A stretch of DNA of 64,000 nucleotides from Escherichia coli (GTDB lineage Bacteria > Pseudomonadota > Gammaproteobacteria > Enterobacterales > Enterobacteriaceae), in assembly GCF_045037415.1 (NCBI RefSeq), contig NZ_CP173440.1; one strand, 5' to 3'. Of this stretch, positions 15,789 through 27,585 are shown in pieces; the stretch's first letter is position 1; each line of letters opens with the position of its first letter. The notes under the pieces are model-generated. The model saw only the letters and a program-made list of their open reading frames with translations, ran no database searches and was not told where the DNA came from. Position numbers and translations under genes: made by a program.

Positions 15789-16811
15789 TCAATATTCCCG
15801 TTGATGTTGATTAAGCCACTGAGCTACCGAGCTGGCAAAGTAAGTCAATATGCCGTCTGCCCCGGCGCGTTTGAAGCATATAAGTGACTCAAGCACCGTT
15901 TGCTCTTCGTCGAGCCAGCCATGCCGGAACGCGGCCATATGCATCGCATACTCACCGGAAACCTGGTAGGCAAAAACGGGTACTGCAAAAGTTTTCCTAG
16001 CTTCCCTGATAATATCCAGATATGGCATGCCCGGCTTAACCATCACCATGTCTGCCCCCTCCTGCAAATCCTGGGCAATTTCATGCAACGCTTCCATCGC
16101 ATTTGCCGGGTCCATCTGATAGTTTTTTTTGTCCCGTTTGCCCAGCGCCATGGCAGATTGAGTGGCTTCGCGAAAAGGACCGTAATAGTTTGACGCGTAT
16201 TTCGCTGAATATGCCATGATCTGAATAGTCAGCAGGCCATTCGTTTCAAATGCCTGTCTGATATGTCCGATGCGGCCATCCATCATGTCGCTTGGCGCGA
16301 CAATATCTGCACCCGCTTCAGCGTGCGTAAGCGCCTGTCTGGTGAGAATTTCTTTTGTCGGCTCATTAAGCACATATCCATGTTCGTCAATGATGCCGTC
16401 CTGACCATGTGACGTATAGGCGTCAAGCGCAACGTCAGTTATCACCCCGAGTTCAGGAAAAGCCTTTTTCAGCGCCCTTACAGTTCGCGGTACTAAACCG
16501 GATGGATCCCACGAAGCGTCTGCCATCAGCGATTTAGCAGAACTTTCTATACACGGAAACAGTGCAATAGCAGGTATACCTGCCTGAACAAATTGCGCGG
16601 CATCATGAAGCAACATATCAACCGACAGGCGAAACACACCCGGCATCGACGGCACTTCCTGCCGCAGGTTTTGCCCCTCAATAATGAATACAGGTAAAAT
16701 CAGGTCGTTTACGGTCAGCTGATTTTCAGCGACCAGACGGCGACTGAAAGAATGGGTACGAGAGCGACGCAGTCGTCGCGCCGGGAAAGAACCAGGAATA
16801 ATAATACTCAC
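15789..16811 (-). CDS. hemB: porphobilinogen synthase paralog (HemB-like), Asp-rich metal site
   Basis: Strong ALAD-family similarity along its length. The metal-site region reads [15 protein letters not shown], i.e. the Cys-rich zinc motif of E. coli HemB replaced by Ala/Asp. Confidence 0.85.
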
Positions 16812-16874
16812 AAAATGTACCTTTTCTTCTGCGTTCTCAGGGAGAAGTTAAGCCTGAGCAAAATAAATACGTGG

Positions 16875-18221
16875 CTAGCGACAGAATTCCAGTGGCAGGC
16901 CGTACTTCTGCTGTATGGTGTGCCCATTCCAGATAACGTGGCCATTTACCAGCGTCATATCAACCGCACCGCCTGACAAAATCCGGCCTTCAAAGGGAGA
17001 CCATCCGCATTTGTATGCCACATCCTCCCGGATTATCTGTTGATGACTGAACGGATCGATAACCACCAGGTCCGCCCAATAGCCTTCCCTGATATAGCCG
17101 CGATCTTTGAGCTGGAAGCGCTCGGCTACAGCATGGCTGGTCTTTCTCACCACCATTTCCGGGGTAAAAATCCCCCTGCTGCACATATCCAGCAGTGCAG
17201 GAAGAGCATGCTGCACCAGCGGTAAGCCGGAAGGCGCAGCAAAATAGTCACTCTGCTTTTCCTCCAGTAAATGCGGCGCATGGTCAGTTGCGATAACGTC
17301 GATAATGCCTTCATTAACGCCTTTCCAGAGGGCTTCCTGATGAAACGAGGTTTTTACGGATGGGTTACATTTGAGCTTATGCCCCAGCGTTTCATAATCG
17401 TCATAATTAAAAAACAGGTGATGAACGCAGGCTTCAGCCGTGATGGTTTTCTGGCGCAGCGCCTCCAGCGTGGGGGCTGCATCAAAGAGAACAAGTTCGT
17501 CTGCGGTGGTAATGTGCAGAACATGTAATCGGGTACGATGTTTTTTCGCCAGAGAGACGGCCTGGCGGGAGGATGTCAGGCAGGCGTCCACAGAACGAAT
17601 AGCGGCATGCTCGCCAGGAGGAATAGCATCCCCAAAACGAGCCCGCCATATCGCCTCATTTTGCTTTATTGTCGGGGTATGCTCGCAATGTGTTGCCACA
17701 AGACAAGGGGCATTAGCGAAAATACTTTCCAGCACCTGTTCATCGTCCACCAGCATATTCCCGGTAGAAGCCCCCATAAAGACCTTCACCCCACAGGCTT
17801 GCGAAGCCGTAAGCGCTTTCAGTTCGTCAAGGTTATCGTTCGTCGCGCCGAAGTAAAAACTGTGGTTCGCCAGCGAAGAACGCGAGGCACGCTGAAATTT
17901 CTCACGCAGCGCCTGACGGGTTGTCGTGGGTGGCGTAACGTTCGGCATTTCCATAAAACTGGTAATGCCTCCCATTACTGCGGCAGCGGATTCAGTGGCA
18001 ATGGTTCCCTTATGCGTCAGACCGGGTTCGCGGAAATGAACCTGATCATCAATCATACCGGGGATCACCCATTTCCCTCGCACATCAATAACCAGCCATT
18101 CCGGTCGGGAGGGAATAAACGAGGCAATTTTCTGGATCCGTCCCTTATCAATGAGGATGTCGGCCTGATAGCGCATGTCCTCACTGATTATTAATGCATT
18201 GGTCAGTAATAAAGGCTTCAT
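16875..18221 (-). CDS. dihydroorotase/allantoinase-family cyclic amidohydrolase (PyrC2-like)
   Basis: 448 aa; DVIATDHAPH, GVKVFMGAST (carboxylated-Lys region). The N-terminal HxH metal motif reads DDQVHF. Confidence 0.7.
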   Translation of the reverse strand: MKPLLLTNALIISEDMRYQADILIDKGRIQKIASFIPSRPEWLVIDVRGKWVIPGMIDDQVHFREPGLTHKGTIATESAAAVMGGITSFMEMPNVTPPTTTRQALREKFQRASRSSLANHSFYFGATNDNLDELKALTASQACGVKVFMGASTGNMLVDDEQVLESIFANAPCLVATHCEHTPTIKQNEAIWRARFGDAIPPGEHAAIRSVDACLTSSRQAVSLAKKHRTRLHVLHITTADELVLFDAAPTLEALRQKTITAEACVHHLFFNYDDYETLGHKLKCNPSVKTSFHQEALWKGVNEGIIDVIATDHAPHLLEEKQSDYFAAPSGLPLVQHALPALLDMCSRGIFTPEMVVRKTSHAVAERFQLKDRGYIREGYWADLVVIDPFSHQQIIREDVAYKCGWSPFEGRILSGGAVDMTLVNGHVIWNGHTIQQKYGLPLEFCR

Positions 18222-25668: not shown

Positions 25669-26121
25669 ATGACAACACCAGTAGCCAAAACGTATGACTG
25701 GAAGCAAACGTTGCGCACACATGGTTTGCGGGCAACGCCATCCACCCTTGCTACACTGCAGTGCCTTGAACATGCCAGCCAGGCCATGAGCCATGACGAT
25801 TTAACTCAGCAACTGGGCGAGCAGGCTCCCGATCGTGTGACCCTTTACCGAATACTGGAACGGCTAATGCAGGTCAGTATTGTCCAGCGTTATACCGACT
25901 CGGCAAGAACTCAGCGTTTCGCTCTGACCCAACGGGCTGCCGTAGGACTTTTTGAATGCGATAACTGCCATCATGTTATTCCTATTGAGCAGGATCCAGC
26001 CCTGGAAGCGGCCATTGAATTGGTAAAATCACATCTCACTGGACATGGTATGACCGAACGGGAAATTACCCTTTCCAGTCATGGTATCTGTCCGGACTGT
26101 AATCGTACTATCACCAAATAA
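25669..26121 (+). CDS. zur: Fur-family metalloregulator, probable Zur
   Basis: CDNCHH…CPDC motifs of the Fur family; divergent from a COG0523 gene and co-directional with the CysRS paralog. Confidence 0.7.
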   Translation: MTTPVAKTYDWKQTLRTHGLRATPSTLATLQCLEHASQAMSHDDLTQQLGEQAPDRVTLYRILERLMQVSIVQRYTDSARTQRFALTQRAAVGLFECDNCHHVIPIEQDPALEAAIELVKSHLTGHGMTEREITLSSHGICPDCNRTITK

Positions 26122-26202
26122 TTTTTTTCTTATTCCGGACGACTGTTAATTAGCGCCAGGCGTGTTCGTGTGCTGCTATCTAAAAATAATGAGGTAAACG
26201 TA

Positions 26203-27585
26203 ATGATTAAACTAACAAACACGCTTGGTATGCAAAAGGAGCTATTAGTTCCGGTTAAAGAGAGCAAAATCGGCATGTATGTATGCGGCGTGACGGTTTA
26301 TGACCTTTGCCATCTTGGGCACGCCAGAACCTTTGTAGCTTTTGATATGATTGTCCGCTATCTGCGTTTTCGCGGATACGATGTGACTTTCGTGCGTAAC
26401 ATTACTGATATAGATGATAAAATTATTCAGCGCGCCCGTGATACGGGAGAGGACTGGCGCAGCCTGACAGAGCGGATGGTGCATGAAATGCACATTGATT
26501 TTGCAAAGTTAGGCATCCTGCCGCCAAACATCGAACCTCGTCCCACAGAGCACATCCCACAAATCATCAGTATGATCGAACGACTTCTGCATCGACAATT
26601 TGCTTACATTGCAGAGAATGGTGACGTCATGTTCTCCACTGCATCGGCAAAAGGCTATGGAAAGCTTTCGGGACAGGATATTACCATGCTTCGTGCCGGG
26701 ACCCGCATCGAAGTGAATGAGTATAAACGCGATCCGCTGGATTTTGTTCTCTGGAAGCGGGCAAAACCCGGCGAGCCCGTCTGGCCATCACCCTGGGGTG
26801 AAGGGAGACCTGGCTGGCATATTGAATGTTCCGCAATGAACTGCCATTACCTTGGTACCCATTTCGACATTCATGGCGGTGGTTCTGACCTGATATTTCC
26901 CCATCATGAAAATGAGATTGCCCAATCCACCTCCGCCAATGATGGCCCTTACGTAAATTACTGGCTTCACACCGGCATGGTGACGGTGAATAAAGAGAAG
27001 ATGTCGAAATCGCTGAATAACTTTTTTACCCTGCGCGATATTCTGAATCGGTTCGATGCCCAGAGTGTGCGCTTCTTCCTGCTAAGCGCACATTATCGTA
27101 AGCCGCTGAATTATAGCGAGGAGAATATTCACCTCGCGCGCGCCTCGCTGACACGGCTCTACACCGCATGCCAGTTCGCTGACGGGTCTCGATCTGAACA
27201 GCACGATGCATGGCGGGCCAGATTCTGTGAGGCAATGGATGATGATTTCAATACACCCCAGGCGCTTGCCATTTTATTTGAACTGACAAGAGAGATTAAC
27301 AGGCTTTGCGGAACGAATGATGATGAAGCCGCAGCACTTGCCACCACGCTGAAAGACCTGGGGAATGTGCTGGGTTTGCTTGAACAATCAGCGGATGCCT
27401 TTTTGAAAAACCGCAGTGATCTTCATCCTGCAGAACTGCAACTTATTGAAAAGTTAATTCACCAACGCAGTGAGGCACGACGTATGGGCAAGTGGGACAA
27501 GGCCGATCGTTTAAGAAATGAATTAGCGGAGCAAGGCATTGATCTTGAAGATGTCGGCGAAAATACCTCATGGCGTATCCGATAA
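26203..27585 (+). CDS. cysS: cysteinyl-tRNA synthetase paralog
   Basis: Full-length class I CysRS similarity (GMYVCG…HLGH, KMSKS). Zinc-ligand positions are conserved ([25 protein letters not shown]). Confidence 0.85.

Follow-up and report, generated by a model that had tools for sequence, protein, structure and literature searches.

We analyzed a 64,000-nucleotide stretch of DNA from Escherichia coli (contig NZ_CP173440.1; the window in the following), in which an initial annotation had described a cluster of about 12 kb with paralogs of zinc-dependent proteins, a COG0523 GTPase and a Fur-family regulator, apparently under the control of the zinc uptake regulator Zur. All twelve genes named there are present (15789-27585), but the cluster does not end at 27585. 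It runs on to 33020 with six extra genes, which encode a flavoprotein, a FeoB-like protein, a 68-residue protein, ZigA, HisI2 and a second Fur-family regulator (Table 1). Compared with family models, 17 of the 18 island genes are full length. A zinc-starvation function is well supported by the family content and the operators, with the zinc control itself as a prediction. We consider it probable that 15789-33020 is a horizontally acquired zinc-starvation island of a pLVPK-type Klebsiella pneumoniae virulence plasmid, in which two repressor/operator circuits coexist.

The island is located on a hypervirulence plasmid of the pLVPK type and not on a chromosome, as judged from its match to such a plasmid and from the presence of rmpA, rmpD and peg-344 further along the same window. 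Positions 15700-27700 are 100% identical to the K. pneumoniae plasmid phvKpST395_NDM1_1657 (NZ_CP072809.1), which aligned to the first 25 kb of the window starting at its position 72070. In PLSDB, this part of the window matched 694 plasmids (657 of them from Klebsiella), with a query cover of at least 80% in 558. The G+C content of the island (0.43-0.51) is well under that of K. pneumoniae chromosomes (around 57%), and an IS3 transposase fragment is located at the left island edge.

K. pneumoniae meets a major obstacle in the withholding of zinc by its host, and mutants of this species impaired in zinc uptake are attenuated (PMC10797113). The hypervirulence plasmid, usually discussed for rmpA and its siderophores, also bears this 18-gene island, in about 600-700 sequenced plasmids. 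The initial annotation had called the breadth of the cluster unusual for an Enterobacterales-type background, but the background is a mobile island of low G+C content on a plasmid and not an enterobacterial chromosome. Nor is the find new or surprising: Haas et al. (2009; BMC Genomics 10:470, PMC2770081) labelled the locus a "Zur-regulated gene cluster on pLVPK". The cluster is indeed larger than those of Pseudomonas, Acinetobacter and also Cupriavidus listed in that study.

Table 1. Genes, operators and related features of the island and its surroundings in the window; gamma and beta denote the two operator classes and their scoring matrices.
Feature	Position	Strand	Description and evidence
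hemB2	15789..16811	-	Porphobilinogen synthase with Asp-rich site, non-zinc type; closes the thrS'-M14-pyrC2-hemB2 operon
pyrC2	16875..18221	-	Dihydroorotase paralog; NCBIfam PRK09236, 685 bits (cut-off 535)
M14/AstE-family metallopeptidase-like	18218..19069	-	NCBIfam NF052223, 294 bits (under cut-off 400); HGEE motif
thrS'	19062..20063	-	Internally deleted ThrRS paralog of 333 residues: TGS domain, C-terminal half of the catalytic core, anticodon-binding domain
Tandem beta-type pair	20091-20113 and 20122-20144		Centres 31 bp apart; distances to thrS' 27 and 58 nt (both upstream); beta 21.4 and 23.9 bits, gamma -10.7 and -7.5 bits
AmiA-like (DUF1460) secreted protein	20493..21317	+	Pfam PF07313, E 6e-86
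PTPS/QueD-like two-module T-fold protein	21334..22200	-	Weak sequence matches; predicted model and fold search
cam, gamma-class carbonic anhydrase-like	22330..22890	-	NCBIfam carbonic anhydrase/CcmM N-domain, E 8e-33, 114 bits
folE2, GTP cyclohydrolase IB	22880..23815	-	NCBIfam, 300 bits (cut-off 215)
dksA2, DksA paralog without C4 zinc finger	23879..24301	-	NCBIfam DksA, 127.5 bits (cut-off 115.5)
Gamma-type Zur box	24328-24350		26 nt upstream of dksA2; gamma 26.9 bits, beta -3.3 bits
COG0523a, COG0523-type GTPase without CxCC	24372..25571	-	ZigA model, 203 bits (under cut-off 600)
Beta-type box	25598-25620		Between COG0523a and Fur#1; beta 23.6 bits, gamma -4.4 bits
Fur#1, Fur-family regulator	25669..26121	+	Weak Fur (E ~1e-8), Zur and PerR matches; candidate reader of beta-type boxes
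cysS2, full-length CysRS paralog	26203..27585	+	NCBIfam cysS, 568 bits (cut-off 340), model positions 1-464 of 466
Gamma-type Zur box	27618-27640		15 nt upstream of the flavoprotein gene; gamma 22.7 bits
Flavoprotein/FeoB-like operon	27656..30656	+	NAD(P)/FAD oxidoreductase, FeoB-like GTPase-permease and 68-residue protein; NCBIfam YpdA-like and FeoB-like matches
zigA	30714..31937	-	702 bits (cut-off 600); bona fide ZigA, hisI2-zigA operon
hisI2	31974..32375	-	HisI, 171.5 bits (cut-off 126)
Gamma-type Zur box	32391-32413		Between hisI2 and Zur2; gamma 25.9 bits
Zur2, second Fur-family regulator	32520..33020	+	Divergent paralog of enterobacterial Zur
Second degraded copy	60807-64000		hisI2-zur2 spacer, hisI2 and zigA fragments (60807-61605); beta box (63892); Fur#1 start

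Zinc-related paralogs of the island

Profile hidden Markov model searches placed none of the proteins in an unrelated family, and the HemB, dihydroorotase, FolE2, DksA and CysRS proteins pass curated NCBIfam cut-offs. The analysis supported the initial description of a cluster of paralogs of zinc-dependent proteins, together with COG0523 GTPases and Fur-family regulators, with Zur-type operators ahead of each operon. FolE2 enzymes are described as zinc-independent or metal-promiscuous. HemB2 and DksA2, judged by their sequences, are stand-ins for zinc-requiring proteins that have lost the zinc sites. HemB2 (495 bits on NCBIfam HemB, cut-off 297) has the non-zinc enzyme of Pseudomonas aeruginosa as its best match in the PDB (1B4K, E 4e-136), compared with E 2e-74 for the zinc enzyme of E. 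coli (1B4E), and it carries an Asp-rich motif where the zinc enzyme has its Cys-rich zinc site. The best PDB match of DksA2 is P. aeruginosa DksA2 (4IJJ, E 2e-31), and only one of the four zinc-finger cysteines is retained (C..T/S..A versus C..C/C..C in E. coli DksA).

PyrC2, CysRS2, HisI2 and the gamma-carbonic anhydrase, PTPS/QueD-like and M14-like proteins are extra copies that keep, or probably keep, the metal site. The M14-like protein, named "M14 family metallocarboxypeptidase" by the Prokaryotic Genome Annotation Pipeline, is related to N-acetylornithine deacetylase of the Shewanella type, and the stop of its gene overlaps the start of pyrC2 by 4 nt.

By sequence, the PTPS-like protein was the weakest call. 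NCBIfam QueD matched over 60 residues (E 1e-10; 41.7 bits versus an equivalog cut-off of 89.25), two Pfam PTPS matches near 1e-3 were found, one per half of the protein, and a phmmer search against solved structures returned no match, Acinetobacter baumannii QueD2 included. The protein belongs to a family of 161 clusters below 1e-30, nearly all of them around 285 residues long. An AlphaFold model built from the family alignment reached a predicted local distance difference test score (pLDDT) of 97.4. In a Foldseek search with this model, Plasmodium PTPS was the best match (probability 1.0, E 3e-6), followed by A. baumannii QueD2 and E. coli QueD. In the C-terminal module, the motif H..H..C....HGH (H154, H159, C163, H168 and H170) is invariant in 56 homologs. 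According to the predicted model, the protein thus has the T-fold and the Cys/three-His metal site by which PTPS/QueD enzymes are recognized.

The initial annotation had counted two aminoacyl-tRNA synthetase paralogs, and one of them stands: the CysRS paralog is full length, but the ThrRS paralog is internally deleted. Compared with the 95%-related chromosomal copy of E. coli DETEC-S560 (locus L002), thrS' shows a clean in-frame deletion of 951 bp, and residues 83-399 of the 652-residue full-length paralog are absent. The lost segment contains the editing domain, two of the class II motifs (1 and 2) and two of the three zinc ligands (the Cys and the first His). With only motif 3, one His zinc ligand and the anticodon-binding domain kept, the protein does not qualify as a class II ThrRS, whereas the chromosomal full-length paralog aligns to ThrRS structures over 621 residues. 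The deletion junction was found in 590 plasmid records, including pLVPK itself (NC_005249.1, 100% identical), and the deleted segment in only five plasmids. A natural mini-paralog was considered and ruled out, given the clean in-frame deletion and the full-length chromosomal copies of E. coli, K. pneumoniae, Superficieibacter and Tatumella. The loss of residues 83-399 leaves CysRS2 as the only credible candidate for a working synthetase paralog on the virulence plasmid. The ThrRS paralog of Anabaena PCC 7120 is a working enzyme.

A second departure from what the annotation suggests concerns COG0523a. The NGCICC motif of ZigA aligns to ADSISS in this protein, with Walker A, ETSG and TKND intact. 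Of the two features that characterize COG0523 proteins (GTPase motifs and GCxCC), COG0523a therefore lacks the second, and ZigA (30714-31937) has both. The Cys-less motif is present in all enterobacterial island copies, across genera, while all ZigA-like neighbours retain GCICC. Recording the broken ThrRS and the Cys-less COG0523 protein guards against over-reading of the annotation. Haas et al. (2009) defined COG0523 by the CXCC motif (PMC2770081), a definition that would exclude COG0523a and explains why they listed no COG0523 protein for the dksA2 operon. Following the same authors, a Zur-linked cluster is recognized by a COG0523 GTPase, paralogs of zinc-dependent proteins, Zur-type operators, and derepression under zinc limitation with zinc-dependent repressor binding. 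The island combines a COG0523 protein (ZigA), paralogs of which some are without zinc ligands, and operators upstream of its operons; its derepression is predicted.

Two classes of operators

Two matrices, gamma and beta, were built from sites tabulated by Haas et al. (2009) and used to scan the whole window, with shuffled sequences as control. The beta matrix is derived from eight published sites of Methylobacillus, Ralstonia and Cupriavidus (TGCAAC-N-GTTGCA), which themselves score 22.3-27.7 bits. With the gamma matrix, five sites were detected in the window at 22.7-26.9 bits (24328, 27618, 32391, 36534 and 57541), compared with a shuffle maximum of 14. The beta matrix detected four at 21.4-23.9 bits (20091, 20122, 25598 and the duplicate of the latter at 63892), for a shuffle maximum of 20. 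Six of these sites belong to the island proper, at 21-27 bits against at most 14-20 bits in shuffles; all six are intact and lie 15-60 nt ahead of start codons. Independently of the matrices, a model-free repeat finder recovered both box families, and a degenerate pattern of the beta class had 4 matches versus 0.19 expected.

The boxes on which Zur control of the whole island had been proposed are thus real and far above chance, but they form two classes and probably not one regulon. Cross-scores are negative in both directions, with -4 to -11 bits for 20091, 20122 and 25598 on the gamma matrix. Sites 24328, 27618 and 32391 match the enterobacterial GAAATGTTATAnTATAACATTTC Zur box (22.7-26.9 bits), and the other three do not. 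A single shared Zur-box matrix was ruled out by this split. We also discarded the possibility that the 9-5-9 palindrome is a wholly new operator, as it matches the published Zur sites of Ralstonia, Cupriavidus and Methylobacillus. The 27618 box shares a 16-nt perfect inverted match with the box of dksA2. Upstream of thrS, the beta boxes are conserved in the E. coli, K. pneumoniae, Superficieibacter, Tatumella and Erwinia loci.

These positions suggest how the island could be controlled. Zinc-loaded Fur-family repressors, bound to palindromes 15-60 nt before the start codons, would block transcription; under zinc shortage, the repressors would leave and the operons would be turned on. In a first circuit, the gamma boxes 24328, 27618 and 32391 would control dksA2-folE2-cam-PTPS-like, the flavoprotein/FeoB-like operon and hisI2-zigA, with the chromosomal Zur of the host, the Zur2 of the island, or both as readers. 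In a second circuit, the TGCAAC-N-GTTGCA boxes 20091/20122 and 25598 would control thrS'-M14-pyrC2-hemB2 and the divergent COG0523a and Fur#1-cysS2 transcription units. Fur#1 is the predicted reader here. This regulator, of Burkholderiales descent, would act on its own gene as well and is probably co-transcribed with cysS2.

Alternatively, the host Zur could control the whole island, with the TGCAAC..GTTGCA boxes also bound by it or present as inert leftovers from a former host, and with Fur#1 as a non-functional passenger. Such a single regulon would agree with the flanks (AACG....CATTAA) and the 23-bp architecture that both box classes share, with the absence of canonical sensing residues from Fur#1, and with the treatment of the cluster as simply Zur-regulated by Haas et al. 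(2009; PMC2770081). We regard it as distinctly unlikely in view of the negative gamma scores of the beta sites and of the conservation of Fur#1 and its box described below.

The core of the finding is already known. The pLVPK cluster of Haas et al. (2009) is the same locus: 32391-32413 has the identical sequence to their site LV196 (hisI2-yciC), and the counterpart of their LV190 (dksA2-folE2-cam) is 24328-24350. For pLVPK, just two gamma-type sites and one COG0523 gene were listed. ThrRS and CysRS are among the nine Zur-linked paralog families of that study (PMC2770081). The second operator class paired with the island's own regulator is not in that study; the TGCAAC..GTTGCA boxes on pLVPK and their link to Fur#1, the 27618 box with its operon, the thrS deletion and the Cys-less COG0523 protein are all absent from it.

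The regulators Fur#1 and Zur2

Close relatives of Fur#1 are found in island copies of Klebsiella, E. coli, Superficieibacter, Tatumella, Shimwellia and Erwinia. The next relatives, at 30-43% identity, come from Paraburkholderia, Burkholderia, Brachymonas and Polynucleobacter. Beyond the island copies, only Burkholderiales genera were named in the profile search, and no Cupriavidus protein was named among its best 120 hits. The Burkholderiales relatives adjoin ZigA-like GTPases, znu/azt-like importers, and HisI2, PyrC2, carbonic anhydrase and CysRS2 paralogs.

Regulator and box occur together. Among 24 loci that encode a Fur#1 relative, 21 have beta-type boxes, placed immediately ahead of the regulator gene or of a neighbouring zigA-like, hisI2, znu/azt-like or thrS gene. 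Not a single gamma-type box occurs in the 16 loci from outside the Enterobacterales (mostly Burkholderiales genomes or betaproteobacterial metagenome-assembled genomes). Fur#1 relatives are thus found in Burkholderiales beside zinc genes and the same boxes, and the beta boxes of the island match the published Methylobacillus, Ralstonia and Cupriavidus type. In Paraburkholderia and Burkholderia loci, beta-type boxes are followed by genes for homologs of the 68-residue protein and then by hisI2.

In the enterobacterial copies, a beta box always lies approximately 50-70 nt before the Fur#1 ortholog (at the equivalent position in loci L004-L011). Across Klebsiella, Tatumella, Shimwellia and Erwinia, where the proteins are 61-100% identical, its half-sites are conserved and its spacers vary. 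Fur#1 itself is intact, and the recognition helix (VTLYRIL.R) and the CxxC pairs are invariant in its clade. Conserved half-sites and an intact regulator argue for a function of Fur#1 and its boxes, and against host Zur as the only reader.

Zur2 has E. coli Zur as its best PDB match (4MTD, E 1e-18) and scores 84.5 bits on NCBIfam Zur (NF008646), under the cut-off of 167; on the same model, Fur#1 scores 31.6 bits. The Zur2 family is a small one from Klebsiella and Enterobacter. Gamma boxes are also present where an island copy has no Zur2 within range (the Shimwellia and Erwinia loci), and host Zur therefore probably suffices for them. In Erwinia sp. S63 (locus L011), one intergenic region (9677-9920) between folE2-cam and the Fur#1 ortholog contains both a gamma box (29.8 bits) and a beta box (18.7 bits), an arrangement that suggests dual control of one promoter region.

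A further-reaching reading is that of a self-contained, portable two-repressor circuit. The Fur#1 operator class would be insulated from the host Zur, Fur#1 would govern one tier of genes (thrS-M14-pyrC2-hemB2, the Cys-less COG0523 gene, cysS2 and its own gene), the other tier would be under host Zur and/or Zur2, the two tiers would respond at two zinc thresholds, and the Cys-less COG0523 protein would not be a zinc-binding chaperone. We hold this more detailed proposal with less than even confidence. If it is true, the island takes its own regulation into any host, E. coli transconjugants included, and is a naturally occurring example of two Zur systems that share a cell without cross-talk. 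This apparent two-repressor, two-operator design on a clinically important plasmid is what makes the locus of interest.

Several observations weigh against our main explanation of a zinc-starvation island with two circuits. By inspection, Fur#1 is without the His-rich sensing motif and the site-2 ligands of E. coli Zur, and zinc is for this reason only its presumed metal. All comparison loci were fetched through Fur#1, so that the co-occurrence of beta boxes with it is partly built in. The likeness of Fur#1 to the Zur of Cupriavidus metallidurans is one of box type and neighbouring genes. Consensus promoter hits in the island are no commoner than in shuffles, and terminators likewise are not enriched. 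Full-text literature searches found no experimental work on the island and no expression or binding data. Finally, with its broken thrS, lost transporter and duplicated fragments, the plasmid copy is under relaxed selection, at least in part. In the zinc-limitation proteome of hypervirulent K. pneumoniae K52145, the paper and its supplements do not mention island proteins.

The promoter and terminator scans yielded two sites of note, a minus-strand promoter-like site (25644-25617) whose -10-like TATTAT is overlapped by the 25598 box, and a strong terminator with a 12-bp stem (30681-30711) that ends the flavoprotein/FeoB-like operon. The flavoprotein at 27656 has a Cys-rich C-terminus ending in CCADEDCAC. 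Rfam detected no riboswitch or other RNA family over 13-37 kb, and a comparison with PHROGs added nothing useful.

The atypical ligand set of Fur#1 could also mean that its signal is not zinc but another metal, such as cobalt, nickel, manganese or iron, and that the beta-box operons answer a different cue from the gamma-box operons. Its best named matches are Fur and PerR and not Zur, and in C. metallidurans the handling of zinc and cobalt is linked via COG0523 proteins (PMC11340326). We nevertheless judge such two-signal control to be highly improbable. The zinc-related neighbours of the Burkholderiales relatives (ZigA-like GTPases, znu/azt-like importers and the HisI2, PyrC2, CysRS2 and carbonic anhydrase paralogs) do not fit it, and in Ralstonia and Cupriavidus the predicted Zur sites are of this box type (PMC2770081), with Zur-box operons of C. 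metallidurans validated experimentally (PMC10882993).

Among the closest known counterparts of the island is the cobW1 operon of C. metallidurans (Op0317f_1; cobW1, folE_IB2, cysS2, queD, allB and carbonic anhydrase), which has two Zur boxes and is expressed only at around 50 nM zinc or below, or without Zur (PMC10882993; PMC11340326). Like the island, it combines a COG0523 protein, folE_IB2, cysS2, queD, a dihydroorotase/allantoinase-type amidohydrolase and a carbonic anhydrase with tandem boxes of the TGCAAC..GTTGCA type, and its two boxes parallel the tandem pair before thrS'-M14-pyrC2-hemB2. Unlike the island, the system is chromosomal and consists of one operon with one regulator; it has no gamma-type boxes, no DksA2, HemB2, ThrRS or HisI2, and no second regulator.

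The island also resembles P. aeruginosa PA5534-PA5541 (dksA2-yciC, amiA2<>folE2-cam-pyrC2) and the Acinetobacter ZigA/QueD2 regulon, with which the island shares DksA2, FolE2, the gamma-carbonic anhydrase, PyrC2, an amidase paralog and a ZigA-type COG0523 protein. Zur boxes in these clusters are of the GTTATAnnATAAC type. The clusters are smaller, however, and depend on a single Zur; moreover, the amidase of the island is an AmiA-like DUF1460 protein and its QueD-like protein is a two-module T-fold. A ThrRS paralog and HemB2 are also part of the Zur regulon of Anabaena PCC 7120 (hemB2, thrS2 and folE2; reviewed in PMC6103462). That regulon differs in being cyanobacterial and in having another Zur box, and the ThrRS paralog of the plasmid is internally deleted.

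Island copies and decay

Compared with other copies, the plasmid island is a decayed derivative of a larger chromosomal island. The chromosomal copies of E. coli and of the K. pneumoniae type strain ATCC 13883 also have full-length thrS, a four-gene metal ATP-binding cassette (ABC) operon and an ABC importer of the FecCD type. The metal ABC operon lies between thrS and the DUF1460 gene and has been lost from the plasmid. The E. coli copy, whose locus extends further left, also has aztABCD. ZniCBA of K. pneumoniae was considered as the lost ABC transporter and ruled out, since it belongs to a different core locus at mltB-pncC (PMC10797113). Conversely, window positions 20148-20595 have no counterpart in the chromosomal copies.

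The left part of the plasmid island, from hemB to thrS, is 91% identical to the E. coli chromosomal copy, but the right part (22086-32430) reaches 99.3%, which indicates that the plasmid island is a mosaic. Similarity to the E. coli copy ends at 32430, inside the spacer between hisI2 and the regulator (32430-33020 compared with L002 29920-30387), and Zur2 of the plasmid is only 41-58% identical to the regulators at the same position in other island copies. These two observations indicate that the right end of the island has been swapped by recombination.

Decay differs between copies. In E. coli DETEC-S560, the PTPS-like gene is interrupted by IS903B, with a remnant annotated as "isocitrate dehydrogenase" (L002 17758-19780), and hisI2 carries an internal stop (L002 29464-29883). 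The window itself contains a second, fragmentary copy at 57.5-64 kb. It comprises the ABC importer, parts of the hisI2 and zigA genes, and COG0523a in a 97.6% copy that retains the operator. This second COG0523a (62666-63865) also has ADSISS in place of GCxCC and intact GTPase motifs.

On the virulence plasmid, the island could be a relic carried along with rmpA and the siderophore loci, with little contribution to fitness whatever its regulation. The thrS deletion in 590 records, the missing metal ABC operon, and the second fragmented copy and insertion sequence remnants that flank the island all fit this explanation, and the near-identity among plasmids may reflect recent clonal spread. We nonetheless think it unlikely, and consider a benefit to the host possible, given 17 full-length genes out of 18, six intact operators, and a hisI2 gene that is intact here but a pseudogene in an E. 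coli chromosomal copy. Zinc acquisition, moreover, matters for the virulence of K. pneumoniae (PMC10797113).

Some further observations concern the surroundings of the island and its copies. Just past the window, genes for a truncated regulator, a lysozyme inhibitor and a peptide deformylase are annotated in the record. A contig labelled Martelella alba BGMRC 2031, an alphaproteobacterial name, contains an enterobacterial-type island copy (locus L008) with both box classes and a Fur#1 of 76% identity; the label may reflect misclassification or contamination. At 57541-60809, a gamma-type Zur box (25.7 bits) precedes a FecCD/heme-type ABC importer, which in the chromosomal islands of E. coli and K. 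pneumoniae comes right after the second Fur-family gene but here has been moved approximately 25 kb away. Finally, at 36534-42819, a gamma-type Zur box (24.5 bits) lies directly upstream of genes for a Nik/Cnt (opine-metallophore)-like ABC importer with an MdtH-like transporter of the major facilitator superfamily; the virulence plasmid could here encode a system for metallophore or zinc uptake under Zur control.

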